From a virus: a DNA stretch of 58,215 nucleotides. A program made the position numbers and the translations under genes. This document shows positions 38,177 through 58,215 of the stretch, piece by piece. The stretch spans positions 1 to 58,215 of the IMG/VR virus record IMGVR_UViG_3300009417_000001; one strand, written 5' to 3'. The notes beneath the pieces are model-generated. The model was given only the letters and a program-made list of their open reading frames with translations. It searched no databases and was not told the DNA's origin. Each line of letters begins with the position of its first letter. Within the stretch, counting starts at the first letter, position 1.

Positions 38177-38197
38177 ACCCAGTACTAGGAGTACCAC

Positions 38198-39271: not shown

Positions 39272-39291
39272 AAACAATCGTGATATGGGGC

Positions 39292-41319: not shown

Positions 41320-41337
41320 TTCTCCTAACTAACTGGA

Positions 41338-41365
41338 CCCCTCCCTATAACTGGGGAGGGTGTTT
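41338..41365 (+). terminator. terminator-like hairpin after the capsid gene
   Basis: CCCCTCCC (41338..41345) pairs with GGGGAGGG (41353..41360), followed by TGTTT. The U-tract is weak. Confidence 0.45.
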
Positions 41366-41371
41366 AATCAC

Positions 41372-41707: not shown

Positions 41708-41719
41708 CGAAACCAGAAC

Positions 41720-42100: not shown

Positions 42101-42104
42101 TCCG

Positions 42105-43091
42105 ATGAGTTCATGCTGCTCTAAATCTACACATACGGCTCGCTCCTTAAATGGAGTTACCCGGTTCATTCGAAATAGCGACGGGGTTGTCGAAACCGAC
42201 CCCGACGTCATTGCCCAACTTCAAGCCATGTTGGACGCGGCGGATGATTCTGTAGATTGTGATGCATGTACGATTGAGGACGCCCTAACGACCTGCGACG
42301 GTTCAACCGGTGGTAAGGTCACTAAAGAATACATCCCCGTTGGGTTCAGCCCCCCACAGGCTTTTCCCAACGGTTCCTCTGTCACGTTCGGCGGGGTTAC
42401 AGTACCTGTGCCGGACGGGCAGCTTTTTGACGAGTCGCCCGATAACCCAAATGCGGTTCCGGCTTCGATCCCGTGGATTGCTTGGCTTAATGATCAGTTT
42501 CCTACGGCCAATTTTGCGTATGTCCCGACTAGCGGTCAGGATTCAACCTGGGCCTGTGGTTCATGGTCGATCCAAGTTGGTGCTCGGACCCTTGATTCTA
42601 TCGATGTCACAACCATCGACCCCGATTTCCCAGACGCTTATTGTGAACCTAAATGCGCGATCCGAGTGAAGGTCTGCGGCTTCGACACGCTTCTTGACAA
42701 ACTAGACACGTTGATCGAGCAGACAGCTCCTCAGATTTGTGCTTACTGCACAGACATCGTATTCGATGGTCGATTATGGAACACGACGAGTGCCATCCAG
42801 TTTGGTCAGCTCGCTCCCCAGGATACTTGGGCCGACGTAGAGACATATCTCACGAGCCTCGGATATACCGTGGAAGACGTGATCAACATTTTACCCGGCG
42901 GGATTCGAGTATCCCGCGACATCAAACGGATTTGCGGACCTGTACCCCTCGGCGATATAACCCACGCCAGAGGAACGGTCGCTCTTGAGTGGGTAGGGAA
43001 AACTGACTGTTGCTGTGAGACTCCGACAGAGGCCACATGCGACTGCCCTGAGACCCCGACTAAAATCACCACCTATAACCAAGGACGATAA
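42105..43091 (+). CDS. virion-module hypothetical protein (N-terminus MSSCC)
   Basis: 328-aa ORF. Confidence 0.7.
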   Translation: MSSCCSKSTHTARSLNGVTRFIRNSDGVVETDPDVIAQLQAMLDAADDSVDCDACTIEDALTTCDGSTGGKVTKEYIPVGFSPPQAFPNGSSVTFGGVTVPVPDGQLFDESPDNPNAVPASIPWIAWLNDQFPTANFAYVPTSGQDSTWACGSWSIQVGARTLDSIDVTTIDPDFPDAYCEPKCAIRVKVCGFDTLLDKLDTLIEQTAPQICAYCTDIVFDGRLWNTTSAIQFGQLAPQDTWADVETYLTSLGYTVEDVINILPGGIRVSRDIKRICGPVPLGDITHARGTVALEWVGKTDCCCETPTEATCDCPETPTKITTYNQGR

Positions 43092-43660
43092 TGAGTTGCT
43101 GCGAAACTGAAATTAAAGACCTGCAAGACGCGGTCGTAAAACTAATCGATGACCTACCGGGTCCCTGCGCCCTTACCCCTTTGTCTGACAACGAGTTGGA
43201 CACGGCTATCCGCACAGGAACCCCCGGCACATCGAGCGAATTCGCCCGGTGTGATCACAACCACCCGATCCGTCGTCAGGCGAACCCCGGCACCCCAACC
43301 CTTACTTTTTCGGGCAACGCGACTTTTCCTCAAACCATCTTATTGGATTTCAATTCCACAGAGGAATGGGTGTCCTACGAGTGGCGAGTCCGTGTAGACT
43401 TTGCTACTGGCAATGGGTGGCGCACGATCGTCGTGCCGAACATACCAGGGTTTCAACGCCCAATCATCGAAAGTGATTCTTACCGGAATGTCGGTAACCC
43501 GGAGCCTGACGCCGCGACGCTGGGGGCTCGACCTGAGCAACCGTACATGGGCGATGAAGTAGCACACTGGTCTTCAACCCAGCGACTCTATTTCGGCCTC
43601 CGCGTCGAAGAAGCGGGACGGATTTACGTCCGGGTCCGCGCTAAATTTATTCGGAACTAA
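43091..43660 (+). CDS. minor tail / fibre protein (N-terminus MSCC)
   Basis: GTSSEFARCDHNH resembles the G-x-S-x3-AR-x-DH-x-H motif that recurs in tail-fibre proteins. Confidence 0.5.
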   Translation: MSCCETEIKDLQDAVVKLIDDLPGPCALTPLSDNELDTAIRTGTPGTSSEFARCDHNHPIRRQANPGTPTLTFSGNATFPQTILLDFNSTEEWVSYEWRVRVDFATGNGWRTIVVPNIPGFQRPIIESDSYRNVGNPEPDAATLGARPEQPYMGDEVAHWSSTQRLYFGLRVEEAGRIYVRVRAKFIRN

Positions 43661-43662
43661 TT

Positions 43663-44076
43663 ATGAGTTATTTTACAGCGACATCCGACCTGCCTATGGC
43701 CCAACCTTTGGACGCCAAGGTCCAGACGATCAAGACTTTGAAAGAAGTCGCGACGCTCGACCTGACAAAGAGCTACGTCATCGATGTTAACTTCCCGGAG
43801 CCTGACGAAGCTATGAGTGATGCCACAATGGACAAGCTCGATTCGAAGTTACGCCTTCGCAACAAGATTCACGCGGCGGTTAACGCGCGGTTCGAGAAAG
43901 AGATGGTTCCCGAGATCGACCCCGTCCAAGAGGCAATCAACGCCGGAATGTCTGACGAACAGATTAAAGAAAAGTTCCTCAAAAAAGACATTATAAAGAC
44001 GGCCAAGGCAAACAAGATATCTGCCCGAGGCAACGAACTAACTATCATCCAACGGATTAGAAAATCAACAAAGTAA
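43663..44076 (+). CDS. hypothetical protein
   Basis: 137-aa ORF. Confidence 0.65.
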   Translation: MSYFTATSDLPMAQPLDAKVQTIKTLKEVATLDLTKSYVIDVNFPEPDEAMSDATMDKLDSKLRLRNKIHAAVNARFEKEMVPEIDPVQEAINAGMSDEQIKEKFLKKDIIKTAKANKISARGNELTIIQRIRKSTK

Positions 44077-44085
44077 AACGTTTTA
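44074..44085. repeat. TAAAACGTTTTA palindrome overlapping a stop codon, 24 nt before the next ATG
   Basis: Read in the sequence. Confidence 0.9.
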
Positions 44086-44108
44086 AAATTATTGGGAAAG
44101 ACCACAAC

Positions 44109-45824
44109 ATGAGTAACTGTAACTGCGGAAAATGTAAGACCTGTACCGGGTCTCTTTGGAAAAAATTCTTGAATCCTCGGGCGGCCGCGCGAGAGATCGC
44201 CAGGCTGTGTGGTTGCCTAGGCGACCTGGAAGCCAAACTCAACGAATGTTGCGAAGGGGCGGGAGAACATACTGTTGACACCGACACAACTACAGAGCTT
44301 GGACCCGGCGTCGTGGACCCGGATACTGGCGTGACCACCTACCAAGTGACCTACGTAAATGTGGTCACGGGGACAACCATTGTGGGACCCGTCATTTCGG
44401 TACCCCCGGATACGGACACCCAGACAGTGATCGGACCTCCAGTTGTAGATCCCGTAACAGGTGTAACTACCTACTCTGTCGCTTACGTTGATGAGGATGG
44501 GGTCGAGACTCCGGGGAATCCCATCGTGGTCCCCGGCCCACCTACGGGAGGAGACGGGAGTCTGGTTCTTTCAGGGGTGGGGTCTGGTCGCATTTTGACC
44601 AACACTAATTCTAACGGTGGTACAAATGAAATTAATATCTGCGATTTAATGCCAGAAGCTTCAGCGGGTAATTCTTTATCGGGCAACTCCACAGGAACTT
44701 TCTCTGAGATCTCTTTCCGAGGCGAGAACGACGAGCCGGTGTCTGGATCTGGTCTGGACACGCCAGTAGCGGACTTTGCGCAGAAGGTTTTTGTAGCAAT
44801 ATCTGGCGGATGCAAGAAGGTATTCAACATCATCGTAGAAGATTGGCACCAGAATACTCTATATGTAGATGGTACATATGGAAACGATTCAACTGGATTG
44901 CGCGAGCGCCATGACCGCCCATTTAAGACGGTTTCTTCGGCCTACGGAGCGAGCCAGTCGGGGGATAAAATTTTCGTCCACACAGGTGTGTACACCGAGC
45001 CGAGAATAACCGTGGCCCACGACATCACTTTTTCGATGGAGGGGGTTACCTACAATGGCGACATATGGGCAGACGGAGATTTGCGTATGCAGATCTTGGG
45101 AAAACCCGATATGCTTGGGGGAGGTAGCGGTCGCACTCTGTTTATAATTAACGGTGCGGATGCGCGTTTGGAGATCGGGCTTTTGCGTAGCATATCTCTT
45201 GCCCTTCAAGTATATGAGCCAACAGAGCTTGGCACGCGCGCATGGTTAGAGGCTGATGAGATTCAAGGTTCTTGCTACGCCACCGGAGTAACTGACGGTT
45301 CTGGAAAGCCACACATGTATGTCAGCGTCGAAAAGGCGCGTCCAACACTAGCACCAAATCCGCTCTTTTACTCAAATCGAGGGGCCTTTATGTGGGTAGA
45401 TGTTCGGGATGCTAGAAACGAATTCCCAAGCGCAGGGGCACCTGGGGCGGGGTCATGCTTTAGTTGCCAATCCTCTTTTATGTGGATTGATTGCGACGAG
45501 GCGGTCTCGGTTAATGCGTCTTGCGTTGTTTCTCTAAGTTTTGGGGCTATCCGAGGCGAGACCCACATGATAACGGGACGATATAAAAGCGAGTCTGCTA
45601 CGCGAGCAACTGTAGACATCCAACCCGCAACAGATCAGCGGGTTAATATCCATGCGGGATCAGTCGTGCTCCATGATGGGACACACCCCCGGGCTATTGA
45701 AAAGCCTGTTGGAGTCGCGGCGGCCGAACTAAGGTTGTACAGCGAGGTGACTATAGAAAAGCCCATAGGTGCGGGCGTGATTCTACTCGTCGGCACGGCA
45801 GATGTTAACCCAAACGCGGAATAA
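44109..45824 (+). CDS. tailspike with right-handed beta-helix (pectate-lyase-like) domain (putative depolymerase)
   Basis: YVDGTYGNDSTGLRERHDRPFKTVSSAYGASQSGDKIFVHTGVYTE is a typical beta-helix N-cap pattern. The N-terminus is MSNCNCGKCKTC. Confidence 0.55.
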   Translation: MSNCNCGKCKTCTGSLWKKFLNPRAAAREIARLCGCLGDLEAKLNECCEGAGEHTVDTDTTTELGPGVVDPDTGVTTYQVTYVNVVTGTTIVGPVISVPPDTDTQTVIGPPVVDPVTGVTTYSVAYVDEDGVETPGNPIVVPGPPTGGDGSLVLSGVGSGRILTNTNSNGGTNEINICDLMPEASAGNSLSGNSTGTFSEISFRGENDEPVSGSGLDTPVADFAQKVFVAISGGCKKVFNIIVEDWHQNTLYVDGTYGNDSTGLRERHDRPFKTVSSAYGASQSGDKIFVHTGVYTEPRITVAHDITFSMEGVTYNGDIWADGDLRMQILGKPDMLGGGSGRTLFIINGADARLEIGLLRSISLALQVYEPTELGTRAWLEADEIQGSCYATGVTDGSGKPHMYVSVEKARPTLAPNPLFYSNRGAFMWVDVRDARNEFPSAGAPGAGSCFSCQSSFMWIDCDEAVSVNASCVVSLSFGAIRGETHMITGRYKSESATRATVDIQPATDQRVNIHAGSVVLHDGTHPRAIEKPVGVAAAELRLYSEVTIEKPIGAGVILLVGTADVNPNAE

Positions 45825-45827
45825 AAT

Positions 45828-46214
45828 ATGATTGAATTGATTGAAAAGCGAATTTCTTTAACAAGCAAAAAGGACCTGCCCGAAGCGGGGGAGCCGAGAC
45901 AGGTGGTGACCGTGGTTGCCGAAGATGGGGGCGTCAGTATCTTTTTCTGGGACGGAGAATCATGGGGTGAGGGTAATGTGTCTTTAAGCGAAACTTTGGA
46001 TGATCAGGGACTACCCATTAATTCTGCTGTTGAACATGGGGATTCAGTAGATCTGGTGGCCCCAGTGTATGACCCTAGAATCGTAGAAGGGACAGGCCGT
46101 CCAGTATTGACTGGGCGAGAGCGTAACTGGGGTCGGTGGGGCGATGACGACGTTCACTATCGCCACGCTCCCGCTCCTAATGATGGTACGACGACCCTCC
46201 CTTCTAAAAAATGA
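45828..46214 (+). CDS. hypothetical protein
   Basis: 128-aa ORF. Confidence 0.6.
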   Translation: MIELIEKRISLTSKKDLPEAGEPRQVVTVVAEDGGVSIFFWDGESWGEGNVSLSETLDDQGLPINSAVEHGDSVDLVAPVYDPRIVEGTGRPVLTGRERNWGRWGDDDVHYRHAPAPNDGTTTLPSKK

Positions 46215-46531
46215 GCCTACAACAAGCCATCTCAGATACCATTCAGGGTTTTTTGAAACCTCTGAATGCTGCCGTAGGTAGCGTCGGAGGTGGGTCGCTC
46301 TCCGTAGCGGTCGTGACAGCCAGTGATTTCGCTGTATGCCTCTCGATCCTCGCGTGCAGCTTCGCCATATGGAGTAGCTACCACACGGGGGCTGACGCTC
46401 GGGAGTCCCGCCGGGATCGACGGGGCAATCTCCCCACTTCTGCTGACTGTCCCGAGGGGTACACGAAAAGCTTTTGCGACTCCCGGCCCGACGACTGCCC
46501 ATGCAACCAATTAGAATCAGGACCCAGTTAA
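46211..46531 (+). CDS. membrane-anchored small protein (possible holin-like)
   Basis: Hydrophobic segment FAVCLSILACSFAIWSSY. ATGA overlap upstream. Confidence 0.45.
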   Translation: MSLQQAISDTIQGFLKPLNAAVGSVGGGSLSVAVVTASDFAVCLSILACSFAIWSSYHTGADARESRRDRRGNLPTSADCPEGYTKSFCDSRPDDCPCNQLESGPS

Positions 46532-46532
46532 G

Positions 46533-47684
46533 ATGCCAGGACACACCCACAACCCATACCCACACGCGCACATGTATTGCCGAGCGTGCCAGGAAGATAA
46601 GTGCCACGAGTGCAACGAATGTCATAACGACGATTGCCACGAACACATGCACTGCCATCCTCCGAAAACGTGTAACAAATGTCACGAGGACCAGGATTGC
46701 CCAGACCACCCGTGCGAAGAACTGAAGTCCCCCTGGGACGCAGTGTCATCCACTATCGCGGTCTGCGAGTCTTCCCACTACCCCGTGGGATCGTGCATCG
46801 TCGTGTATGGGGATGCCGGGCGAGTAGTTCGCAAGGTCACCGGGCATATAAGCGACAGTGCGTTGGAGGTGGAGCCCCACTACCCAACTCCCGACACCCC
46901 TGAAACGGCCCAGGTGTTTTCAAACGCATATGTGTGTTTATCCCCAATCTGCCCCGAGGAGCCACCAGAGATCCCAGAACCACCGGACGATTTTGAAGAG
47001 ACCCCCCTGTCGATTTCAAACAACAACAGTTCGACAACGTTTCTGGAGGTATCTCAGAATCCTGGAGACAAAGCCCCGCAGACAGTAGGCATCACTCAAA
47101 CCACCGAGTGCTTGTTGACCAAACTTCAAACATGCGCGCCTCACCGGATTATTCCGGCAGCGCGCCCGTGTCCCCCCGGATCCCCGACCCCAGACTACCC
47201 AAGTAACAACACCCCCACGATTGATGTCGGCACTCTGCAGGATATGAAGGATGGGTACTCTGCGGACAACACGAGTGGCGCAGTACTCACCCGACGTATT
47301 TGTTTTGACGTGGCCTCTGGGGCGTGTGGCACGCCCGAGTTTGTTGACATTGTTGTGTCTCCCTGCGGGTTCGCACCCCCCGGACATTTCCTGCAATATC
47401 AGTTCCCCCCGGTAGTTGGCGGAGATTTCTGCGAAAATTTTGAAAATGTCTCGGAGGTGGAGGACTCATTCACAACGTCGGCATCACGTAAACATGTGGT
47501 TCGAGCACAGGTTATCGGGGGCCAAGCATGCATTGTCATGACGGTAGTCTTAAAAACTCAAACAACTGATACCAACGTTGGTATTGGGGGAGTCTCACAA
47601 GTTGATCTGTCTACTGAGGGCTGGTGGTTTAACAACAACGCCCGTATCTCTCGCTACTACGTCGCACCAACCGAGGATTGCTAA
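46533..47684 (+). CDS. tail fibre-like protein with a Cys/His-rich N-terminus
   Basis: The first ~65 aa are MPGHTHNPYPHAHMYCRACQEDKCHECNECHNDDCHEHMHCHPPKTCNKCHEDQDCPDHPC. It is a paralog of the next gene. Confidence 0.6.
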   Translation: MPGHTHNPYPHAHMYCRACQEDKCHECNECHNDDCHEHMHCHPPKTCNKCHEDQDCPDHPCEELKSPWDAVSSTIAVCESSHYPVGSCIVVYGDAGRVVRKVTGHISDSALEVEPHYPTPDTPETAQVFSNAYVCLSPICPEEPPEIPEPPDDFEETPLSISNNNSSTTFLEVSQNPGDKAPQTVGITQTTECLLTKLQTCAPHRIIPAARPCPPGSPTPDYPSNNTPTIDVGTLQDMKDGYSADNTSGAVLTRRICFDVASGACGTPEFVDIVVSPCGFAPPGHFLQYQFPPVVGGDFCENFENVSEVEDSFTTSASRKHVVRAQVIGGQACIVMTVVLKTQTTDTNVGIGGVSQVDLSTEGWWFNNNARISRYYVAPTEDC

Positions 47685-48917
47685 ATGGGAAAATGTAACG
47701 ATTGTAACCAGTCGCACGAAGACCCAGTTTGCCCAAACTGCGAACCGATGCGGACCAACAGCCCCAGCTTCCTGGGGCCGTCGGCCCCGGGGTGCTCAAC
47801 ATGCGGTCAAAACCAATGTGGTTGTGACGGAGAAGTGTCCCGTCCGATCATGCCTCCCGAGGTTAATTACCTGGGGGAGACACACGTACGTTACTGCCCG
47901 GAAGAAGATTTAAAAACTAAGTCTTTTGGCCAAGTTCCTTTTGGCGACACCCGCATACTTCGAGTTCGAGATGCGAGTTGTTACCGCGTGGGGGCCTGCG
48001 TTCGTTTGATCGACGATCGAGGAAATCAAAACGTTTTAAAAATCACTCAAGTAGATCACAGGAATTGTGAGATACATGTAACCGCGTACCGCAACGATTT
48101 CAGTTCTGAGGACGTTTCTCTGTCGGGGTGCATCTCCATCGCTTATCTCCCTCTCTGCCCATTAGAGATCGAAGAAGAGACCCTGGATGACTGCATCCAC
48201 CTGACAGTCAAGACTTCGGAAAGCTTTATCATGCCTGCGGCCCCAGGAGACCCTGCCGACCCTGGACAACCTGTCAAGGTCTGCTTCGAGGAGTGCTTCC
48301 ACATCTGCCCGGGAACAACCATGTACATCCCCGACGCCGGATTCATGGATGTAGCTTGCGACCCAAGTGACTCTTCATTCACATCTCCAGCAAACTGCTA
48401 TTGGTTCACCAACAGCGGAAACCCGAACAACCGAGATAAGGGGCTAACGGTACCTTCTGGAAAATGCGCGTACCCGTCTGTGTCTCAGCCAACGGAAATT
48501 ACCACTGGGGCTGGCCTCGTGACTGAGGACGACGGGACCATCTCCCTGGACTTCTCTTCCGCAGTTTGCGTAGCCGGAGATGGGGGGATCATCAAAGACG
48601 ACGATGGCTGCCTCGCACTCGACCCATATTATTGCCCTCCTAAGAAGGTCCTTGAAGATGTACCGGTTGATAGCTGGGTACAGCCATCCGCTGACGGGAA
48701 CCCTGTAGGGGGCAACCTAACATTCTGTGCCACTGATGACGCCGCATCTGTTGGGGGTACGATCACCATCGAAGTGGCCGACGACGCCTCGGGAACCAAT
48801 TCCGTGGAGCATGTATCTCCCAATGAGGCCCTTTGCTTCACTGTAAATGTCCCTTGCGGTAGTTACGTCAAAGTGTCATTGTTCTCTCTCGAAGCCCCTA
48901 TAACGGTGACGGGATGA
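47685..48917 (+). CDS. tail fibre-like protein with a Cys-rich N-terminus (paralog of 46533..47684)
   Basis: MGKCNDCNQSHEDPVCPNCEP...CSTCGQNQCGCDG. Both proteins share a Y-x-VG-x-C block and a PxCP block. Confidence 0.6.
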   Translation: MGKCNDCNQSHEDPVCPNCEPMRTNSPSFLGPSAPGCSTCGQNQCGCDGEVSRPIMPPEVNYLGETHVRYCPEEDLKTKSFGQVPFGDTRILRVRDASCYRVGACVRLIDDRGNQNVLKITQVDHRNCEIHVTAYRNDFSSEDVSLSGCISIAYLPLCPLEIEEETLDDCIHLTVKTSESFIMPAAPGDPADPGQPVKVCFEECFHICPGTTMYIPDAGFMDVACDPSDSSFTSPANCYWFTNSGNPNNRDKGLTVPSGKCAYPSVSQPTEITTGAGLVTEDDGTISLDFSSAVCVAGDGGIIKDDDGCLALDPYYCPPKKVLEDVPVDSWVQPSADGNPVGGNLTFCATDDAASVGGTITIEVADDASGTNSVEHVSPNEALCFTVNVPCGSYVKVSLFSLEAPITVTG

Positions 48918-48918
48918 T

Positions 48919-50700
48919 ATGGCTCAAAACTCAAAATATGATTTCGATGGAACTTTTACGTTTCACGATGCGGTAAACTCCGGGATCGCTGCCGAGAACG
49001 TCGGCTTGTTCCAGGCGTCTCGGGCGATCAACATGACGTTCCGAGATGGTTACGTCGGTCCCAGACCGTCTATCCGCAAAGTAGATGTTGCCTGGGGTCC
49101 CGAGATACAGCGGGGGAGGTTCCAAGGCAATGCCCGGGAGAACCGGACCGGAAAACTAACCTTTGCCGTGGATGGTCATATTTACCAGTTCGACCCAAGC
49201 ACGTCGGACACCCGCCGGATCACTGACCAAGTAGTCCAGCGGGACCCATGCATGTTCCGACTTTTCTTTACCGAAACGTGCGAATACATGATTGTAAATG
49301 ACGGGAAGCGACTACCCGTCCTTATCAGCAACACTCAAGTCAGCGAGACCGACCCCGACCTACCATCCACGATCGATGTGGGTCAAGGCGGCCAGTGGGG
49401 TCCGTTCACCCACGGGGTATTTTCCCAGGGGTATCTCTCAGGAGCCCTCTCAGGAACTAATTCGTTTGTAGTGAGTGATCCTTCCGTCCCTGGACGCGCC
49501 GAGGACAATTACCTTTGGACCACTTTGACTGAGTACCTGAATGGTGGGGGATACATCAACGTCGGCACCTGTGATGAGTGCATCACCGCCATGTTCGAGA
49601 GGCCTGTCTTAAATACCCCCACAGGTACCGGAGGCCTCCTCGTAGCCACCCGCGACGCTATTTACGCGAACGACTTATCTCGGGAGCGAGACTCCTGGGG
49701 CTACGGAGGTTTCCAAACTAAAATTTTAAGTCGGGGCGTCGAGTCGGCTGACTCAGTCATAACCGTGAACAACGACATTCGGTTTCGAAACCGCGACGGG
49801 GTGTACAGCATCAACCACGGGCTGACCGAAGACGGGTCACGTATTTTCCTATCCCTATCCAAAGGCAACAGCTATTGGATGCGAGACGATGATCCCACCC
49901 TGCTCCGCTACACGGTCGGATCTCTTTGGAACAACCGATCAATGATGTCTACTCGACCCCGCCAAGTAATCTTGGACGACGGTCGGATCGACTTTGTTTG
50001 GGACGCCTTGGCAGTCTGGGATCACGACCTCAACCGGACAGTCCGCAGCGAAGCTAATGAAGTTTCAGAAGGTATTTGGACGGGGTTGCAGTGGATGGGC
50101 ATCGCCAAGACCCCAGAGCAACTATTCTTTTTTGCCAAGGATTCAGACGGCAACAACGCACTATACGAGCTTATGGACGACGGGTACCCGAACTCTGGGT
50201 ACGACTATGCCGGGGATCGAGAGATCCCCATCGAGCAGGTCCTGTACCCCAAGGCATACACTTTTAAAACCCCGTTCAACCGTAAGAGTTTGAAGCGGGT
50301 CGATCTGTACATCAAGCACGTCGTGGGCCAAGCCGAGTACCAACTGGGAGTCCGGGGCCGTACATCGGAGTGTTGGTCCGACATAACGGATCGGAAGATC
50401 ATCTGCCAAACAAGTGGTTACGAGGGCGTCGAGTCCTGCCACTGCGAGGAAGACATCCCCGTGTACCCGTCGGGCCACTTCCCTCAAAACTCCGCTGGGT
50501 TCATTGAGGAGCCCGGCAGCCGGGAATCCTGGGAACTGAGAATCCGAAAATGGGGTCCCGGCCAGATTGAGAAATTGAGAATTTCGGCAACTAACAAGGA
50601 GTTGGAGCCTGGGAGCGGAAGCTCAGAAGACGAAAATCAAGGTTGCGAAGGCGAACCATGCTGTGGTAGTGATGAGCAGTACAACTACCGAATGGACTGA
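48919..50700 (+). CDS. tail structural protein (nozzle-like, putative)
   Basis: 593 aa, assigned from its position in the tail module. Confidence 0.4.
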   Translation: MAQNSKYDFDGTFTFHDAVNSGIAAENVGLFQASRAINMTFRDGYVGPRPSIRKVDVAWGPEIQRGRFQGNARENRTGKLTFAVDGHIYQFDPSTSDTRRITDQVVQRDPCMFRLFFTETCEYMIVNDGKRLPVLISNTQVSETDPDLPSTIDVGQGGQWGPFTHGVFSQGYLSGALSGTNSFVVSDPSVPGRAEDNYLWTTLTEYLNGGGYINVGTCDECITAMFERPVLNTPTGTGGLLVATRDAIYANDLSRERDSWGYGGFQTKILSRGVESADSVITVNNDIRFRNRDGVYSINHGLTEDGSRIFLSLSKGNSYWMRDDDPTLLRYTVGSLWNNRSMMSTRPRQVILDDGRIDFVWDALAVWDHDLNRTVRSEANEVSEGIWTGLQWMGIAKTPEQLFFFAKDSDGNNALYELMDDGYPNSGYDYAGDREIPIEQVLYPKAYTFKTPFNRKSLKRVDLYIKHVVGQAEYQLGVRGRTSECWSDITDRKIICQTSGYEGVESCHCEEDIPVYPSGHFPQNSAGFIEEPGSRESWELRIRKWGPGQIEKLRISATNKELEPGSGSSEDENQGCEGEPCCGSDEQYNYRMD

Positions 50701-50705
50701 TAAAG

Positions 50706-51182
50706 ATGGCGAATAAAGACGAAAAAGGGATACTCACCCTACCGGTCAAAGGTAGGGTCGGCAACCGCTTGGGTTCCTGTTGGGGTACGCCCAAAGAGTT
50801 TTTCAAACGTTTGATTGAGGCTCTGTACATTCAGATCGATTCGCGCGAGTTTGGTAAGGCCTACCCCGGACACGCCCCTCCCGAGGACCTATCAAGCATT
50901 TGGTTTCAGACCGACAAAGACGGCCGCCCGATTTGTGCGAAGTCTTACTACAATGGGAAGTGGGTACCTCTGTTCCCTTGCTTCCCCGCGCAAATGAAAT
51001 TCCCGTTCTGCGGAGATCCCGACGACATCCAAGAGCCTTGGTGCGTTGCTGACGGCCGGGGCGGTACTGACGATACCCGTGACCAGTGGGTCATGGCTGA
51101 CGGGAGCGATGTACCTGGGGCCGGAACCAACATCGACGATGACGTAGCTTTGGGCTACTTACAATACTGCGGTTACTCCTGA
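50706..51182 (+). CDS. virion-module hypothetical protein
   Basis: 158-aa ORF. Confidence 0.6.
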   Translation: MANKDEKGILTLPVKGRVGNRLGSCWGTPKEFFKRLIEALYIQIDSREFGKAYPGHAPPEDLSSIWFQTDKDGRPICAKSYYNGKWVPLFPCFPAQMKFPFCGDPDDIQEPWCVADGRGGTDDTRDQWVMADGSDVPGAGTNIDDDVALGYLQYCGYS

Positions 51183-52183
51183 TGCTGACACTAGGCCAAG
51201 CTAAACAAGACCTGGCGATCCAGGATGCGATGGGTTCGGGCGAACCGAAATCCCCACAGGCACACCTACGGTATAACCGCTCCATCGACCGAGCAGTTCG
51301 ACAACTGTTGCGGAAAGGTGACTGGCACACTGCGTTGCAAGAGTACTGCTTTAACACCTGCGAGGGATGCCTCCACCTACCCCCCGAGATCAAACGGGTG
51401 GTTTCGATCGATTTAAATTGCAACCTGGCCCGAGTATTCGACAGACACTTTCGGTACCTCGATCAAGGTCCTGGCATGTGTTCTACGACCATGTGCGGAC
51501 CCGAGGGAATTCACGACGCCGGGTTGACCCAAGTACTTCAGCAGCCGAAGAGCCCCACAGGGCTGGCCGTAATCTTAGACAGTTGTGATAGTGGTGTCGA
51601 GGTGTCCATCCAGGCCCGAGACCAACATGGGAAAACCATCACGACTTTCGGGCAGTGCGGCGAAGGATGCCAGCAGTCCATTAAGATCAAACCCACCTTT
51701 GGAAAGATTCAAACGTTTGAATTCCCGATCGTGGCCGAGATCTGCCAAGTAACCAAGGGAGCCACCTGCGGGGCGGTATACCTCTACGAATACGATTGTC
51801 ACACCCGCAAGGTAGGAAATCTAATCACGACGTTATATCCCGAAGACACTTTCCCACAGTACCGGAAATACAATCTGGGAGACATGTTTAACCCCGCCCC
51901 TCAGGCGATCCGACTACTGGCCAAACGGAAGCACCGAGTGTTGCACGATGACACGCAGGCTCTGATGGTAGATAGCCCCGACGCCGTGGCCATGATGTTG
52001 AAGTACAACGAGGCCTTGAAAGACGAAAACCCAACAATGGCTGATTTTTATCTTAACGAGGCGTTAAACTTCATGGATGATTCTGAAATGGATTACTCTG
52101 ATGAGAGCGACGAAGTTCGTTACAATTTTGAAAGAACTGTCCGAGTTTCTGGCGAGCCTGGACTTAGAAGCGGAGGTTGGTAG
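51182..52183 (+). CDS. head-tail adaptor / tail tubular A-like protein (weak)
   Basis: The N-terminal pattern IQDAMGSGEPKSP...NRSIDRAVRQLLRKGDWHT recalls the T7 gp11 N-terminus. Confidence 0.3.
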   Translation: MLTLGQAKQDLAIQDAMGSGEPKSPQAHLRYNRSIDRAVRQLLRKGDWHTALQEYCFNTCEGCLHLPPEIKRVVSIDLNCNLARVFDRHFRYLDQGPGMCSTTMCGPEGIHDAGLTQVLQQPKSPTGLAVILDSCDSGVEVSIQARDQHGKTITTFGQCGEGCQQSIKIKPTFGKIQTFEFPIVAEICQVTKGATCGAVYLYEYDCHTRKVGNLITTLYPEDTFPQYRKYNLGDMFNPAPQAIRLLAKRKHRVLHDDTQALMVDSPDAVAMMLKYNEALKDENPTMADFYLNEALNFMDDSEMDYSDESDEVRYNFERTVRVSGEPGLRSGGW

Positions 52184-53799
52184 TGGTTATTACAAACAGG
52201 TTTGGCACGCAGACAGAAGGTGGGTCTGGATCTGGATCTACCACCGGAACTAATGTAGATTCTAGTAGGTTTGGCGCAGGCAGCGGTGGGTCTTCAGGAC
52301 CGGGGGCTTTTCCCGACCTCCCCGGATTAGGACCTGCGGCATTTGCAGATTTCATTTCTTACACACCTGATTTTGCCGACTATGCGGAGGCCGACTTCAC
52401 GGGAGTTGACTTTTCGACCATACCGGAATTTGCGGCTATTGATGTAGATGCAATCTTAAACGAGGTCTCCGAGCGCAACCGAGCGCAGTACGGAGAGAAC
52501 ATTCCCCTGGCCCTCGACTTTGGCTCCCAGGTTTCCAATGCCGCTTTCGACAGTTTCGAACAGTACTTGGACGAACTCCTACCCAACAACAAAGAAATTC
52601 TAGCCAACACGTCCCGCGAGGTAAATAACTTTGTGACTCGGGGGTTACCCACTGCGGCGGCTAATAATGCAACCCTACGTGACGCAGCTTTCCAAAACAC
52701 CGCAGGGGTCGGGGGCTCCCTGGCGACCAGAACCGCCGTGGCTGCCGAGGCATCCCGCGACGTGGCTGCCGTGCAGTACGGTATCGGGGAAGCCCAGAGC
52801 CTAATCAACAGTGCTCGATCTACAGGTCAGTACTTTGCAGGCATCAATGCAAGTGCATCGCAGAATGCCCAAAACGCTTTGACCCAGTTGACAACGATCA
52901 CTCCGGCCCAAGGGGTACAGTTTGGGTTCTCTGAAAGGGACTTCCAATACAATGCGGCTCTGAACAACGCCCAGATCTTGAACTCCGAGTCTCAATTCAA
53001 TGCGAATGCTTACAACGCAAACCAGCAGTTCAATACGAACTCCTTCAACGCGAATCAGCAGTTCAACACGAGTTCTACGAACAGTGCTAGGGCCTTTGAA
53101 GCTTCGGCTTACAACGCTACCAGTCAGTTCAACACAGGGGTTGAGAACCAATTCAACATAGCCAACACGGCGGCCGACCGGGAAGAGATCTTAGCGAACT
53201 TTAACTACCAATACGCATTAGAACAGCAACGTCAGGCCAAAAAGGATTCCCGGACATCTGCCATTGGGACCCTTGTGGGGGCTGCCGCTGGGTTTGCCCT
53301 GAGTTTGGGGAACCCCGCCGGGGCTGTCATTGGTGCCGGGATCGGTCAGGCACTCGCAGGAGGCGCAACTGGAAATTCTGGAGCGGTCGCCGGAGGCACT
53401 CAACTCGCCGCAACGGGGGTAGGCCTTGCAGCATATGCCGGTAGGACCGCATCTGTAACCCCGCAAGGGGTTCCCGGGGCCGCCTTGACCGCAGGCAACC
53501 AAGTGTCCGCACCTATTAATGGTACTTCAGCCTTCTTGGAAGGTGCATCCACAGGTAACGTAACCGCGTCCAATACTTTCACACCTGTGCCACTACCTGT
53601 GGCCCAGACAGTGGCTCCCGTGTCCCAGAGCACACCCACCATTTACTCTGGGGCCAATACGGCTTACACACCGACATCTGGGTACTCCACACCCATTACG
53701 AACATAACTGGGTCGATCAACCCCGGAGCCCCTGGACCCGCAGGATATAGCTCTTTTAATGGTCGGACCACCCCAGCCTCTAAACTTCTTCGGAACTAA
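52177..53799 (+). CDS. internal virion protein (Q/N-rich repeats, Gly-zipper hydrophobic segment)
   Basis: Non-ATG start. (Y/F)NANQQFNT repeats. AIGTLVGAAAGFALSLGNPAGAVIGAGIGQALAGG. Confidence 0.5.
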   Translation: MVVVITNRFGTQTEGGSGSGSTTGTNVDSSRFGAGSGGSSGPGAFPDLPGLGPAAFADFISYTPDFADYAEADFTGVDFSTIPEFAAIDVDAILNEVSERNRAQYGENIPLALDFGSQVSNAAFDSFEQYLDELLPNNKEILANTSREVNNFVTRGLPTAAANNATLRDAAFQNTAGVGGSLATRTAVAAEASRDVAAVQYGIGEAQSLINSARSTGQYFAGINASASQNAQNALTQLTTITPAQGVQFGFSERDFQYNAALNNAQILNSESQFNANAYNANQQFNTNSFNANQQFNTSSTNSARAFEASAYNATSQFNTGVENQFNIANTAADREEILANFNYQYALEQQRQAKKDSRTSAIGTLVGAAAGFALSLGNPAGAVIGAGIGQALAGGATGNSGAVAGGTQLAATGVGLAAYAGRTASVTPQGVPGAALTAGNQVSAPINGTSAFLEGASTGNVTASNTFTPVPLPVAQTVAPVSQSTPTIYSGANTAYTPTSGYSTPITNITGSINPGAPGPAGYSSFNGRTTPASKLLRN

Positions 53800-53800
53800 C

Positions 53801-56269
53801 ATGCCTTCTAACTTCGTTGCATCTGATTTACTCAACCGCGCTGCTGAGGACCGGGCGAACGCAGGCCGTATTGGCCCTGCCGCCGCAACTGGGTTCCTCG
53901 CTGGCCTGGACGCCAGTTACAAGATGGCCAAGTTTGACTTTGACGTTCAAACCCAGGCTAAGAAGTTCGCCTTGGCTGAACAAGAGTTACAATACACGAA
54001 GACGGAACAGGATCGCCAGTTTGCCTTAAAGTCGGCTTCTACGGAACTGGACGACCGAATCAAAAATGAAACGTTTGAATTGACCAAGGTGAACCTGGGT
54101 CTTCAGCAGGACGCCCGTAAGCTCGAACTCAGTCGTCAGGGAGCCCTCATGCGGGACACCCTGCAAAAGATCAACTTCGAGAAACAAGACGTCCAACTCC
54201 AATCCGAGTACGATTCACTAGCATCCCAACTCCCCCCAGACAAGGTGATGCCTTTCACGCAGACGTACGTGCAAGACTTGTTCAAGGAAGCCAAGGCGAC
54301 CGAGAACCCCGATGAGCGAAATGTACTCATGCAACGAGCCAGTCGGTTCCAGCAAAAGTGGGAAGGGGAAGTCAAACAGCAGTTGGACGAACTCCGTACG
54401 GCTCGACAAGAGGCCATTTTACAGGGCGACCACACCGCCGCTGAGAACTTTAGAAAACAAATTCAAGCCATCGGCGGTGACCTAGCAGTTTACCAAGTCA
54501 ACAAAGGCACGTACGCACTTCAAGAGCAGGTGGCTAAGATGCAGTTGGCTGTGGCGAAGCTGGAAGAATTCAAGGATAACAAACAAGGTAAAGATGACGA
54601 CGCAGACATCCGAGTCGGCCTGGCCGGACTTGCGGCTGACGAAGACCCCTACGAATTTTTAGACGGTTTGACTGAGAAAGCGACCAACAACCCTAACCTA
54701 ACCCAGGGTGAAAGACGTAGGGCTGTACAAGCCATCACGTCGAATCGGGAGCGGCTAAAGGCGGCCGAGCTAGGGGATGTGGTGGAGGCCACAGCCTTCG
54801 AAGAGGCCAAAAACATTTATACGCAGAACCAAAATAATCAGAATGCCTTGGTAGCCGGTACCGAACTTCTTCAACAAATCTCTACATCTACAAGTAGTTT
54901 TTTGCAATCTCACCAGAACGCCGCCCCACACTTGGTCGGACCTCTCGTCCAAATGGATCAAGTGGCTCTGGTAACCGACTACATCGCCAACGCCACCGAG
55001 GCTGCCGGAGGCACTTTAGACCCGGTCACTTTCAAAGCCTTGGGCGAGGTTCGATCTAAGATCCTATCCGAAGGTTTCTCGGCGGCCAAGGCTGCCGTGC
55101 AAACTGGGACCCAAGAGTTTGATGAGGCCTTCTCACTGTTTAAAAACTCCCCTGCCTTGGCCGCCTTAACTCCCGAGGAGCAGAAGGTTCAGATCACCAA
55201 CAAATACCAAGAGTTGTACGGAGTGCATTTGAAAACCCCTGTCGAAGTCCTAGGAGTGTACACAGGTAAGGTTAATGGAGATTCTCAAAGAACTCTGGAC
55301 CGGGCGAAAGGGACCCCTGAGAACTTCGACGCCTTTGAGTTTGCTTCTGGGGCTTCTGAAGCTACCCCCGCTGCCGATGCGTTGGGGGACGAAGCTAATT
55401 TCCAAAATCCTGAGTTTACCTTAGAGAATGCCCTCGCCTTTGACGCTGACCCAGATGAGGTGGCATCAATTCAACAGTCCGTTCTGGAAGATTCTCAAGC
55501 GGAGGTATCGAGAATTGCGTCTAAGAATGTAGACATCGACCTGTACCAAAGTTCAGTCAAAGGAACCCGGTTAACGGAGTCTTCACTTAAAACGGGCAAC
55601 TACGATGCAGGAAGGATTAAAAAATATAGTTCTATATTACGCGGTTTGGAGAAAACTGAGCAAGTCAAAGGATCTGAGGAACTCCAGAAAGACCTCACTG
55701 GACTACTAAGTGTGATGCAGACGTTGCAGGATGCCCGTAAAAAGGATAATGGTTCGGACCCGGCCAACGACGTTCGCGCCCTAACCCTTAATGTGAATGC
55801 TCGTTTAGATAAGTTGGGTGGTAAACTAGGTACCGAATTCAAAAAATTCAGTACCGGGGTGAAAACACCCCCGCCCGACGTAAGGTCGGTTCCAGACGTC
55901 CTTTCTAGGCTCTCCCCCAAAGAATTAGACATTGACTTGTACCAAAGTTCGGTCAAAGGAACTCGGTTAACGGAGTCGTCTCTTAAATCAGGTAATTATG
56001 ACGCTGGGCGAATTAAAAAATATAGTTCTATATTACGCGGTTTGGAGAAGACTGACCAAGTCAAGAAATCTGAAGCTCTTCAGAAAGACCTCACCGGATT
56101 ACTGAGTGTGATGGACACGTTGCACAAGGCCCGTAAGGATGACAACACCTCGTCAGGCAAACCTGGCAGTAGTGTCCGATCACTAGTACTCAACGTGAAC
56201 GATCGATTAGATAAATTGGGCGGTAAATTAGGCACGGAGTTGCAAAAAATTAGTTTACCTGGTGGGTAA
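53801..56269 (+). CDS. internal virion / ejection protein (coiled-coil rich)
   Basis: The ATG at 53801 lies 1 nt after the upstream stop. 822 aa. It has a C-terminal tandem duplication. Confidence 0.5.
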   Translation: MPSNFVASDLLNRAAEDRANAGRIGPAAATGFLAGLDASYKMAKFDFDVQTQAKKFALAEQELQYTKTEQDRQFALKSASTELDDRIKNETFELTKVNLGLQQDARKLELSRQGALMRDTLQKINFEKQDVQLQSEYDSLASQLPPDKVMPFTQTYVQDLFKEAKATENPDERNVLMQRASRFQQKWEGEVKQQLDELRTARQEAILQGDHTAAENFRKQIQAIGGDLAVYQVNKGTYALQEQVAKMQLAVAKLEEFKDNKQGKDDDADIRVGLAGLAADEDPYEFLDGLTEKATNNPNLTQGERRRAVQAITSNRERLKAAELGDVVEATAFEEAKNIYTQNQNNQNALVAGTELLQQISTSTSSFLQSHQNAAPHLVGPLVQMDQVALVTDYIANATEAAGGTLDPVTFKALGEVRSKILSEGFSAAKAAVQTGTQEFDEAFSLFKNSPALAALTPEEQKVQITNKYQELYGVHLKTPVEVLGVYTGKVNGDSQRTLDRAKGTPENFDAFEFASGASEATPAADALGDEANFQNPEFTLENALAFDADPDEVASIQQSVLEDSQAEVSRIASKNVDIDLYQSSVKGTRLTESSLKTGNYDAGRIKKYSSILRGLEKTEQVKGSEELQKDLTGLLSVMQTLQDARKKDNGSDPANDVRALTLNVNARLDKLGGKLGTEFKKFSTGVKTPPPDVRSVPDVLSRLSPKELDIDLYQSSVKGTRLTESSLKSGNYDAGRIKKYSSILRGLEKTDQVKKSEALQKDLTGLLSVMDTLHKARKDDNTSSGKPGSSVRSLVLNVNDRLDKLGGKLGTELQKISLPGG
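55532..56254 (+). repeat. tandem duplication of a roughly 110-aa module (period 396 to 402 nt) inside 53801..56269
   Basis: DIDLYQSSVKGTRLTESSLK...RLDKLGGKLGTE occurs twice. An exact 37-nt match links 55616..55652 and 56012..56048. Confidence 0.9.
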
Positions 56270-56287: not shown

Positions 56288-58215
56288 ATGCCTGTTAACG
56301 GACTTTACCCACTACCTGAAATCCTAGCCAGCACCGAGTACCAGTCAATGGAGCCTGATAACCAGGTTGCATTACTGCGTGACCAACGTCGTATAGCCAC
56401 AGAGATGGCTCCAGACCAAACGGATCAATTGGTCTCCCTGTACGATTCAGCGATCTTGGACGTAGCCCTAAAGCCACCAACGATCCCAACCTCGACAAAC
56501 ATGTCGAATGCATTCCAGAAGTCTTTTGACGCCCTCTGGTCTAATGCATATTACGGCCTGATCGACACAGACGTAGAAGCAGCTAAGATGCACCGCACGC
56601 TGTTAGAGCGTCGTCAACCCACGCGGGAGGGGTTTTCAGAAGATGTGGGTGAAGTGGCGGGTATGGTGCTTCCCTCGATCGCAGCCCTATTCATTCCAGG
56701 CGGCCAAGGAACCTCGGCGGCCGGGATTCTTAATCTAGCTCGTTACGCCACGGCAGCACTACCCCTCGCCACCAGTTCCGGGGGTGGAGCCTTAATTGAT
56801 GCTCGCGAGTACCAAGATTTAATCGGAGGTCCCGAACTCTCCAAAACTCGACAGACAGCCATCTTCGCAGGTAACTTCCTGACTGAGGCAGCCACAGAGG
56901 CCCTCGGGTTCAAAGTTATCGACGGTATCTTGGGCAAGGCGGGTCAGAAACTAGGCGGCAAGGCCTTTGCTAAAATGGGTACCGAGGCTGCCGAGGCGAT
57001 GGGCGACGCTCTCCTCCGAGGCGATACAGCAGGTATGGGGCAGGCATCCAAGAAATTCTTTGCTACGGCCCTCCCGGCCGCATTCGGTGTAGCCGCGTCT
57101 GAGGGTACCGAGGAAGTGGTCGCCCAGATAGCTCAGAACGCTTTGAAGAACTCCCTGTACTTGCAGGACCAAGATGAAGTGAGTCTGGGTGACGGCCTAG
57201 GAGATGCGTTTTATAAGGGGGCTTTGGGTGGCCTGATGATCACCCCTTTCGGCCTGGCGGTTGGTAATTCAAGCGCAGGTAAATATCGAGAAAAATTGGA
57301 GGCCAACCTCCGCGAACGCCATTCACTAATTCAACAGGTATCAGAAACTGTAGCTCCTTCGACCTTTGCCCCCGAGGCACTGAGTCACCCAAGTTACCAG
57401 ACGTTAGCAGGCATCTTGGCATTCCATGAAGTCAATGTCATCCCAGTCCGAGGCCTCAGTGGGGCTCGAGGTGTAGTTCCCGGTGAAAGCTCGAATGACG
57501 TTTTGGTAGACGTTGATCGGTTGATCAAACCTGCGGAAGGATTCTCCGCGATGCTCCAATATACCTTGGGTCACGAGATGAACCACATCGTGGAAAACAA
57601 GGTGCCGGGTTACCGAGAGGCTTTGGAAGGGTTGGTCAAGTCAGACCCCGAATATTCAAAACGTTTGAATGACTTACGGGCGAACAGCAACCTTGACAAC
57701 GCCACCGAAGAGCAGGCCGTGTCGGAGCTCATCGCCGACTATGCAGCCCCCAAATTCTTTACCCCGGAGTTTCAGCAAGCTTTGTTCGATTCTCTGCCCG
57801 AAGGAGAGGCTAAAAAGTCCTACGTTCAAGCAGTGTCTTCGAACTCAGATTCGATCACCCGTGCGACGGCCGCCCTTGAAACCTTTTTGGAACAACCTAC
57901 AGGCACTCCTGCCCTAGTCACTCGGGCGCGGGAAGCAGTCGAGGGGATGCCTGACGTGAAGGCCATCGACACCTTGCTAACCCAGGGGTTGGCGGCATCT
58001 ATCTTGGACGGCGAGATCATCAATCAAACAGTCCCCGGAACTGCGGCCACAGGCGACCAGGCGACCGAGGAACAAGCTGAACAGGCGACCGAGGAAAAAC
58101 CCGAGCAGACGACTGAGGAGAAGGTGGCCGAGCGCGTAGATGCAGGTGACCTAGAAGGCGCAGTAGAAATTTTAGATCAGGAGGCCGGAGGTGCGGCCGA
58201 GGCCCTAGGGCTGAC
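56288..58215 (+). CDS. giant virion-module polyvalent protein, N-terminal part (continues at 2..7885 across the junction)
   Basis: ATG at 56288 lies 18 nt after the stop of the upstream gene. I translated the frame by hand and found no stop before the window end, which is why it is absent from the ORF track. It is in phase with ORF 32..7885 through the 123-nt overlap. It has Gly/Ala-rich hydrophobic segments followed by LGHEMNHIVE (HExxH at 57572..57586). Confidence 0.85.
   Translation, partial: MPVNGLYPLPEILASTEYQSMEPDNQVALLRDQRRIATEMAPDQTDQLVSLYDSAILDVALKPPTIPTSTNMSNAFQKSFDALWSNAYYGLIDTDVEAAKMHRTLLERRQPTREGFSEDVGEVAGMVLPSIAALFIPGGQGTSAAGILNLARYATAALPLATSSGGGALIDAREYQDLIGGPELSKTRQTAIFAGNFLTEAATEALGFKVIDGILGKAGQKLGGKAFAKMGTEAAEAMGDALLRGDTAGMGQASKKFFATALPAAFGVAASEGTEEVVAQIAQNALKNSLYLQDQDEVSLGDGLGDAFYKGALGGLMITPFGLAVGNSSAGKYREKLEANLRERHSLIQQVSETVAPSTFAPEALSHPSYQTLAGILAFHEVNVIPVRGLSGARGVVPGESSNDVLVDVDRLIKPAEGFSAMLQYTLGHEMNHIVENKVPGYREALEGLVKSDPEYSKRLNDLRANSNLDNATEEQAVSELIADYAAPKFFTPEFQQALFDSLPEGEAKKSYVQAVSSNSDSITRATAALETFLEQPTGTPALVTRAREAVEGMPDVKAIDTLLTQGLAASILDGEIINQTVPGTAATGDQATEEQAEQATEEKPEQTTEEKVAERVDAGDLEGAVEILDQEAGGAAEALGL
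58093..58215. repeat. terminal overlap, second copy of 1..123
   Basis: Identical to 1..123. Confidence 0.95.

Follow-up and report, generated by a model that had tools for sequence, protein, structure and literature searches.

Introduction

In phage Syn5, gp43, gp44 and gp45 are capsid core proteins and the counterparts of gp14, gp15 and gp16 of T7 (PMC5850374). T7 gp16, a protein of 1,318 amino acids (aa), combines an N-terminal accessory enzyme, a transglycosylase, with a conserved C-terminal ejection module (PMC8954989). The much larger proteins gp50 of N4 and gp60 of Pseudomonas phage H66 have been described as homologues of internal virion protein D (IVP-D) that host cytoplasmic enzymes, and Hardies et al. 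united the T7 gp16, N4 and H66 groups by the stepwise joining of hidden Markov models (PMC4819975). Iyer et al. described polyvalent proteins with zincin and SWI2/SNF2 domains, including Strawberry-notch-like ones, that are encoded among virion genes; their paper mentions neither gp16 nor internal virion proteins (PMC5512222). Here we analyse IMG/VR virus record IMGVR_UViG_3300009417_000001 (58,215 nucleotides (nt), the whole of which is called the window below), in which one giant gene of 3,229 codons is interrupted by the ends of the assembly. Its product is likely to be a cysteine-free internal virion or ejection protein of the gp16 type that carries a helicase and a probable zincin, that is, 'polyvalent' cargo on an ejection protein like N4 gp50 and H66 gp60.

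Results

One gene spans the ends of the assembly

The first and the last 123 nt of the window are exactly identical, and the unique circle comprises 58,092 bp. ATG 56288 is the first start codon of a frame that begins 18 nt past an in-frame TAA (56267–56269), which doubles as the stop of the upstream open reading frame (ORF) 53759..56269. A first-pass annotation made from the sequence had claimed that this frame is open to the window end and is unlisted because it never terminates, and our translation indeed contained no stop; the ORF list lacks the 5' part of the gene because the frame runs off the window end. Joined through the overlap, which is exact, the frame continues in phase with ORF 32..7885, so that the GTG at position 32 is internal, as had also been proposed. 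The size given then (9,690 nt, 3,229 aa, about 17% of the genome) was reproduced: the joined gene has 9,690 nt including the stop and encodes 3,229 aa (354 kDa, isoelectric point 5.3), which amounts to 16.7% of the 58,092-bp unique genome. The parts of the gene are as follows:

56288..58215, + strand: 5' part of the giant gene, codons 1–643, starting with ATG 56288
1..123 (= 58093..58215), + strand: terminal overlap of the circular-looking assembly, codons 602–643, in the acidic linker and inside the coding sequence
124..7885, + strand: remainder of the giant gene, codons 644–3229, with the stop at 7883–7885

At this composition a stop is expected about every 23 codons, and the probability of finding none in 3,229 codons is about 1e-61. 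The GC content of the three codon positions follows the pattern GC1 > GC3 > GC2 uniformly along the giant gene, as it does in the other genes. Six tandem repeat arrays lie within the gene, and their periods (9, 12, 18, 18, 24 and 33 nt) are all multiples of 3. A second phage protein, P0008 (2,686 aa), carries the N-terminal module (aa 23–217) and the C-terminal module (aa 2251–2570) of the giant on one polypeptide, and therefore provides independent evidence that the sequences at both ends of the window belong to one protein. The giant gene is real and continuous; the window, a complete and circular-looking assembly of a phage, was cut by the assembler inside one late gene.

The C-terminal module belongs, by profile homology, to the IVP-D-like family

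The assignment of the giant is carried by its C-terminal module (C-module), which has the following features:

4985..7774, + strand: C-module, an IVP-D-like internal virion/ejection module by profile homology, aa 2264–3193 (~930 aa)
5072..5104, + strand: polybasic tract KRRKRKKRKKK, aa 2293–2303, inside the N-terminal part of the C-module match
6617–6649, + strand: motif VIPFTSVV, conserved in the family
6896–6913, + strand: motif GAGPRD, conserved in the family
6944–6973, + strand: motif GGREYTMRIG, conserved in the family

A tblastn search of the C-module against 50,697 GenBank phages returned one match, in podovirus MW202801 (E 9e-16; E 1e-21 when the C-module was compared with the protein by BLAST). 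The matching protein of 1,121 aa is encoded by the last structural gene, directly ahead of the endolysin. It matches phrog_6651 'internal virion protein' (E 2e-24) and also the annotated 'internal virion protein (D)' of Pelagibacter, Synechococcus (Syn5 gene 45), Prochlorococcus, Roseobacter, Desulfovibrio and Methylophilales podoviruses. An alignment of four sequences led to 61 loci in IMG/VR, and a family profile was built from 60 relatives, with the giant left out. This profile matched the giant at aa 2264–3193 (E 6e-100), HTVC011P gp34 at aa 262–1183 of 1,230 (E 3e-64), Syn5 gp45 with a best stretch of aa 747–1391 of 1,415 (E 2e-54) and P0008 at aa 1932–2645 of 2,686 (E 4.5e-42); with or without the giant, the E values for HTVC011P gp34 and Syn5 gp45 range from 2e-54 to 5e-79. 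Because a profile free of the giant unites it with HTVC011P gp34 and Syn5 gp45, the C-module falls, on profile evidence, within the IVP-D-like family that is known from marine T7-like phages. The gene had been placed in the slot that holds the largest ejected core protein of T7-like podoviruses, and the C-terminal 930 aa do fall into the family of Syn5 gp45 and of the IVP-D of HTVC011P, gp34.

Like the giant, Syn5 gp45 (1,415 aa) and HTVC011P gp34 (1,230 aa) are free of cysteine and are the last and largest products of a run of cysteine-free genes. The giant is 2.3–2.6 times longer and has an extra N-terminal module, zincin-like region, helicase and orphan region upstream; the likeness is seen by profiles only and is undetectable in pairwise comparison. 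The genome of the window is also not T7-like: its two arms converge, and a single-subunit RNA polymerase was not detected in any of the scanned ORFs.

In every one of the 61 IMG/VR loci the ORF ends with the C-module; these ORFs have 950 to more than 3,700 aa and 0–2 cysteines. A Pfam scan of 18 such ORFs found ART-PolyVal and DUF7178 in three each, and DNA methylase, LPD23, LPD14 and GNAT in one each. At the level of domain content, the parts upstream of the C-module are seen to be exchanged modularly within the family. The domain combination had been called unusual at this position, a view that has to be given up: enzyme-bearing IVP-D homologues (N4 gp50 and H66 gp60; PMC4819975) and polyvalent proteins with zincin and SWI2/SNF2 domains (PMC5512222) have already been described, and the 61 IMG/VR loci have the same layout.

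Absence of cysteine

The giant has no cysteine in 3,229 aa, compared with 1.9% in the other 42 ORFs (P ~2e-27). The two ORFs directly upstream (540 and 836 aa) have none either, and the eleven ORFs 39469..52183 include very cysteine-rich ones, with up to 6.6%. The cysteine contents of proteins from characterized phages and from relatives are:

T7 gp15 and gp16: 0 cysteines
Syn5 gp44 and gp45: 0 cysteines
HTVC011P gp33 and gp34: 0 cysteines
N4 gp50, gp51 and gp52: 0 cysteines
H66 gp57–59: 0 cysteines; gp60: 1 cysteine
61 C-module ORFs (up to 3,720 aa): 0–2 cysteines; the ORFs immediately upstream of them: 0 cysteines in 77%
P0001: 1 cysteine; P0007: 0 cysteines; P0009: 0 cysteines

The neighbouring tail and capsid proteins of T7, Syn5, HTVC011P, N4, H66 and the loci of the relatives contain cysteine. 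A complete lack of cysteine is consistent with proteins that must unfold and traverse the tail, and by analogy it gives the strongest support at hand for regarding the 540-aa and 836-aa ORFs as candidate ejection proteins. The signature was seen in every set of ejection proteins examined. Phage proteins that leave through the tail may in general be recognizable, from sequence alone, by having no cysteine at all, which may help to spot them where homology fails.

Helicase, zincin-like region and N-terminal module

Upstream of the C-module the giant contains the following features:

56432..57307, + strand: N-terminal module (N-module), aa ~49–340, Gly/Ala-rich and predicted to be helical
57425..57847, + strand: putative zincin-like metallopeptidase, aa ~380–520, with an HExxH...E motif
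58054..58119, + strand: 24-nt tandem repeat, 2.8 copies, in frame, at the start of an acidic Pro/Thr-rich linker (aa ~585–905)
214..294, + strand: tandem repeat of the linker, 18 nt, 4.5 copies (DPVADE), in frame
366..446, + strand: tandem repeat of the linker, 33 nt, 2.5 copies, in frame
971..2743, + strand: SF2 ATPase/helicase, probably Strawberry-notch-like (SWI2/SNF2 clan), aa 926–1516, from motifs and Pfam
1184–1201, + strand: SF2 motif I (GYGKTF), intact
1394–1411, + strand: SF2 motif II (DEFH), intact
1574–1588, + strand: SF2 motif III (SAT), intact
2492–2521, + strand: SF2 motif VI (QVAGRTARFG), intact
2801..2890, + strand: basic (KPKA)n repeat, 12-nt period, about 7 copies
2903..4984, + strand: orphan middle region, aa 1570–2263 (~700 residues), without a homologue by any tool used

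The assignment of aa 926–1516 as an SF2 ATPase is firm at the level of motifs and profiles. Pfam ResIII reaches 28.8 bits and exceeds its cut-off (22.5), Helicase_C_4, the C-terminal domain of Sbno, with 23.3 bits stays below its cut-off of 30.5, and helicase families of PHROGs match the region as well. Over about 600 aa it is 28–31% identical to the proteins P0001 (3,719 aa) and P0002 (2,846 aa), both of which contain AAA_34 and ddrB-ParB, with Helicase_C_4 in P0002; the UniRef name of a further homologue (P0003) refers to a 'large polyvalent protein associated domain'. Segment-wise searches of the giant with Pfam, PHROGs and NCBIfam gave helicase matches only, and sequence and profile searches of all segments against PDB gave only repeat or coiled-coil noise.

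The putative zincin contains HEMNH at 57572–57586 (aa 429–433) and, further on, an S-E-L-I-A-D helix at 57722–57739 (aa 479–484), both of which are kept in the protein P0004. An AlphaFold model of aa 1–581, made from a six-row alignment, has an overall predicted local distance difference test score (pLDDT) of 56.7, with values of 70–84 for the helices of the zincin region. In this model three short strands lie ahead of the HExxH helix and are followed by helices, an arrangement in keeping with the zincin core that polyvalent proteins are described to have (PMC5512222). From motif and model the region is a probable zincin-like peptidase; it is graded as probable because no Pfam model matches it.

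The N-module has the invariant residues P111, G121, P129 and A132 and an E-G-x-E-E motif at 273–276. An exhaustive search of representative proteins found it also at the N-terminus of other large phage proteins, namely P0004, P0007 (2,094 aa, with Pfam ART-PolyVal), P0008 and P0009 (1,745 aa). P0004 is 37% identical to the N-module of the giant, and the alignment continues through the following zincin-like region. Searches of metagenome, genome and viral contigs with the N-module gave no match, and neither did tblastn of the N-terminal part against the GenBank phages; word-indexed homology searches gave no match with the N-terminal or the C-terminal part alone and only three matches with the whole protein.

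The contig of the closest relative (L003) is syntenic with the window, with homologues of ORFs 51182–52183 and 52177–53799 (the latter being the 540-aa ORF) upstream. Its gene for P0004 (943 aa) ends with about 150 Arg/Ser/Pro-rich residues that look out of frame, while another protein-like frame runs to the contig end (region L003:5300-6354). The stop is therefore probably the result of a frameshift in a longer gene, and P0004 would be a truncated call. P0004 was considered as evidence that the N-module can be a stand-alone protein, and this was rejected, since the L003 gene is probably frameshifted.

Position of the gene

The giant gene is the last gene on the + strand. The arm on the − strand (8126..28539) encodes a family A DNA polymerase, an exonuclease, a helicase, a primase and a ParB-like protein, and the two arms converge at 7886–8125. 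The DNA polymerase is at most about 29% identical to that of any GenBank phage. P0008 is likewise encoded by the last gene after SU10-type portal and capsid genes and before convergent genes, the gene for P0007 lies after an SU10-type capsid gene and before a convergent arm with DNA polymerase A, and several of the IMG/VR loci have, downstream of the giant gene and in the opposite orientation, a homologue of the window helicase 14783–16099. A late arm that ends with the giant gene and is followed by a convergent arm thus recurs in distant relatives. The earlier claim that the gene is the last of its block stands, as it is the last on the + strand and convergent replication genes follow.

On the − strand, a terminator-like hairpin with a T-run lies at 7829–7853, within the final codons of the giant gene and at the point where the − strand arm would end.

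Comparison with T7 gp16, N4 gp50, H66 gp60 and the polyvalent proteins

With T7 gp16, which is the largest of the capsid core proteins of T7 and leaves the virion before the DNA, the giant shares the slot in the gene order after two core proteins, the complete lack of cysteine and the general plan of N-terminal accessory enzyme and C-terminal ejection module. The accessory enzymes differ in the compartment in which they act: those of the giant need the cytoplasm, whereas the transglycosylase of T7 gp16 works in the periplasm. No Pfam or PHROGs match to an SLT or lysozyme domain was found in the giant. The unfused state was observed in a 68-kb Logan contig (L001, 4528–21160), in which the helicase-bearing P0001 (with ddrB-ParB and 1 cysteine) has a gene of its own, preceded by a ferritin-like ORF and by the gene for an SLT-transglycosylase protein of 1,661 aa. 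In this contig the cargo lies next to the lytic ejection protein and is not fused to it.

N4 gp50, the virion RNA polymerase (vRNAP) of 3,500 aa, is like the giant in that it exceeds 3,000 aa, is free of cysteine and ends the structural arm beside a convergent replication arm. Further points of likeness are a cytoplasmic enzyme in the centre, a zincin-like region and, at the C-terminus, an IVP-D-like region, which gp50 requires for encapsidation (PMC5512222, PMC4819975). Where the giant has a helicase, gp50 has an RNA polymerase, and no similarity between the two proteins was detected. An identity of the giant as a vRNAP-like protein was considered and rejected, as Pfam and PHROGs gave no RNA polymerase match and no match to N4 gp50 was found. 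H66 gp60 (3,787 aa, 1 cysteine) is encoded by the last structural gene before the lysis genes, and its presence in virions was verified by mass spectrometry according to the GenBank record. Where the giant has the helicase, gp60 has a methylase-type S-adenosylmethionine site, and no profile similarity was found.

With the polyvalent proteins the giant shares the multi-domain organization and the location among late genes, and probably also the combination of a zincin-like peptidase (putative in the giant) with a Strawberry-notch-like ATPase of the SWI2/SNF2 clan. None of the domains MPTase-PolyVal, ART-PolyVal, LPDs or ddrB-ParB gave a Pfam match in the giant at E <= 1. Signature domains of polyvalent proteins are present in the proteins that share modules with it: ddrB-ParB in P0001 and P0002, ART-PolyVal in P0007, and ART-PolyVal, LPD14 and LPD23 in IMG/VR relatives. 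Neither the giant nor its neighbours have a methylase domain in Pfam or PHROGs searches; the methylase–helicase dyad of P1 DarB is absent, because the helicase is without a methylase partner, and a DarB-like identity was rejected for want of this domain.

Discussion

By analogy with the characterized systems, the giant would be packaged in the virion and ejected at infection. The capsid core would hold a few copies of it alongside the two cysteine-free proteins encoded just upstream, and at infection the giant and its partners would be unfolded and ejected through the tail. The C-module would then contribute to the DNA conduit, in its inner-membrane and cytoplasmic part, and the enzymes upstream of it would enter the cell along with the leading end of the DNA. 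Once inside, the ATPase might track on the incoming DNA and either protect it from restriction, as DarB of P1 does, or help in drawing it in, and the zincin may cut the chain into working pieces.

It should be noted that several observations weigh against this reading. The part of T7 gp16 that is N-terminal to the membrane segments stays periplasmic (PMC8954989), and an ATPase would be useless at such a position because there is no ATP. By analogy, either the whole chain would have to enter the cell, as N4 gp50 (vRNAP) does, or the chain would have to be cleaved. The C-module profile did not match T7 gp16, N4 gp50, H66 gp60 or any PDB chain (the PDB results were coiled-coil noise), so that the link to T7 gp16 consists of position and the Autographiviridae annotation; the giant also gave no direct match to phrog_6651. 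The AlphaFold model of the C-module, from a three-row alignment, has a pLDDT of 38 and is too poor for a fold comparison, and a Foldseek search of the model of aa 1–581, also too poor for that purpose, found no PDB match below E 0.1. The zincin call depends on a motif that is kept in only two sequences and on the model with a pLDDT of 56.7, with no Pfam MPTase match. No ortholog with the full architecture of the giant was found in protein, IMG/VR, metagenome, genome and viral-contig searches. Lastly, the + strand ORFs 31913..56269 match nothing in Pfam, PHROGs or the GenBank phages. The description of the preceding block as a virion module in the first-pass annotation is supported indirectly, by the layout that is conserved in relatives, because the ORFs themselves match nothing.

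The giant might also be a polyprotein, made as one chain and cut at its flexible linkers by its own zincin or another protease into an N-module/protease part, a helicase and a gp16-like protein, only some of which would be packaged. This is a variant of the proposal above and does not exclude it, and we regard it as possible, if doubtful. The HExxH...E region is present, the long acidic Pro/Thr-rich and (KPKA)n linkers separate the modules, P1 DdrB is a precedent for processing, autoprocessing has been proposed for polyvalent proteins (PMC5512222), and in L001 the helicase protein P0001 and the SLT-bearing protein of 1,661 aa are products of separate neighbouring genes. Nevertheless, N4 gp50 likewise has a zincin region and yet enters the capsid in unprocessed form (PMC5512222), cleavage sites in the giant are not predictable, and the assignment of its zincin is weak.

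A more far-reaching version of the packaged, gp16-type ejection protein is that the embedded SWI2/SNF2-type ATPase is a double-strand DNA translocase and serves as a motor, drawing the leading stretch of the genome into the cell. We consider this unlikely. If true, the unexplained transcription-independent 'ratchet' that has been ascribed to the C-terminal part of T7 gp16 would have an ATP-driven counterpart, and enzyme-driven genome internalization would become directly testable in a podovirus.

It is rather improbable that the giant is never packaged and instead forms a cytoplasmic late or anti-defence helicase complex that is encoded at the end of a late operon. In favour of such a complex, the upstream genes are unannotated and a helicase needs ATP and DNA. 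However, the characterized members of the C-module family are core or ejection proteins (PMC5850374), the near-complete or complete lack of cysteine is common to N4 gp50 and H66 gp60, which are packaged according to experiment, and the last place on the late strand is kept in distant relatives.

The two remaining alternatives concern the continuity of the gene. Assemblers often break at repeat arrays in linker-coding regions, and the contig break sits in the 24-nt repeat array at 58054–58119, in the region that encodes the linker. The copy number of this array could be mis-assembled, with any error remaining in frame, because the period is a multiple of 3. If the two ends of the window merely shared a repeat, additional sequence or a stop might lie between them and the assembly artefact would conceal two genes. 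The break in a repeat-rich linker, with the tandem array overlapping the start of the 123-nt overlap, is compatible with this, and an exact-match search of IMG/VR and the JGI metagenomes, in which the source contig is also absent, gave no independent contig that spans the junction. Nevertheless, an artefact is very improbable: the 123-nt overlap occurs nowhere else and the flanking sequences are unique; the two partial ORFs share strand and phase and are both open-ended; the 5' part lacks a stop, and so must be continued, and the 3' part lacks a start; P0008 unites the same N- and C-modules in one protein; errors in repeat number would preserve the frame; and the genome, of plausible size, holds a replication arm and a late arm.

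The least probable alternative of all is that the virion genome is linear and the 123 bp are a true direct repeat of its termini, with a gene that is split at the physical ends, becomes whole after circularization or concatemer formation and could be expressed only late: short direct terminal repeats do occur in T7-like and N4-like phages and a collapsed terminal repeat looks like a circle in an assembly, but the known short ones are non-coding and lie between gene blocks, whereas the repeat of the window consists of 41 linker codons inside a long ORF and has an odd length, 123, that is typical of the k-mer overlap of de Bruijn assemblies.

The design of the giant protein is already known from N4 gp50, H66 gp60 and the polyvalent proteins. 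What is new is modest: a very divergent uncultured lineage, a methylase-less helicase in an IVP-D-like protein, an uncharacterized N-module and the orphan region. An uncultured 58-kb phage lineage is added to the set that would use a gp16-type ejection protein as the carrier of cytoplasmic enzymes, and the C-module shared by 61 viral contigs ties the literature on polyvalent proteins to that on internal virion protein D. The N-module and the orphan region of about 700 aa are candidates for new injected effectors. For the annotation of circular phage assemblies, the locus illustrates that the largest gene is lost if the break falls inside it, which is remedied by re-linearizing before the ORFs are called.

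Neighbouring genes and further observations

The two cysteine-free ORFs that precede the giant gene are:

53759..56269, + strand: 836-aa ORF, 0 cysteines, helical-looking; candidate analogue of IVP-C (gp15-like) by position only
52177..53799, + strand: 540-aa ORF, 0 cysteines, rich in N, Q, G, A and S, with a hydrophobic Gly-zipper segment; candidate small ejection protein by position and composition

The 836-aa ORF has no homologue in Pfam, PHROGs and profile or iterative searches. It contains a direct repeat of 220 nt (55530–55749 and 55926–56145; 83% identity, spacing 396 nt, in frame), which duplicates a segment of about 115 aa near the C-terminus. The 540-aa ORF has imperfect repeats of the type 'FNxN(A/S)(Y/F)NANQQ', a weak match to Pfam Gly-zipper_YMGG and a match to phrog_594 (E 5e-5); its TTG start overlaps the preceding ORF, and the true start may lie further downstream. 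Profile and iterative searches linked neither ORF to T7 gp14 or gp15, Syn5 gp43 or gp44, HTVC011P gp32 or gp33 or the genes upstream of the homologues of the giant, and tblastn of three upstream ORFs against the GenBank phages gave no match. Undetected sequence links are usual for fast-evolving proteins of the gp14/gp15 type (PMC4819975). The view of the first-pass annotation that both are internal-virion-type proteins therefore agrees with their position, size, helical or Gly-zipper sequence and lack of cysteine, and lacks a homology match.

The block 31913–52183 further upstream on the + strand, which is presumed to serve morphogenesis, includes ORFs of 760, 802, 616, 328 and 571 aa, among which the terminase, portal and capsid genes should be found, and several of its ORFs are cysteine-rich (3–7%). 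Two consecutive ORFs on the + strand, 46533–47684 (383 aa, 24 cysteines) and 47685–48917 (410 aa, 27 cysteines), have dense N-terminal clusters of cysteine and histidine, for example MPGHTHNPYPHAHMYCRACQEDKCHECNECHNDDCHEHMHCH, which from their sequence look like metal-binding sites. No homologue of either ORF was found, and the two are not clearly paralogous to each other. There are no tRNA genes anywhere in the window. ORF 30174–30848 on the + strand matches Pfam GP88 (PF17338) with E 2e-40, the only firm family match among the + strand ORFs besides the giant.

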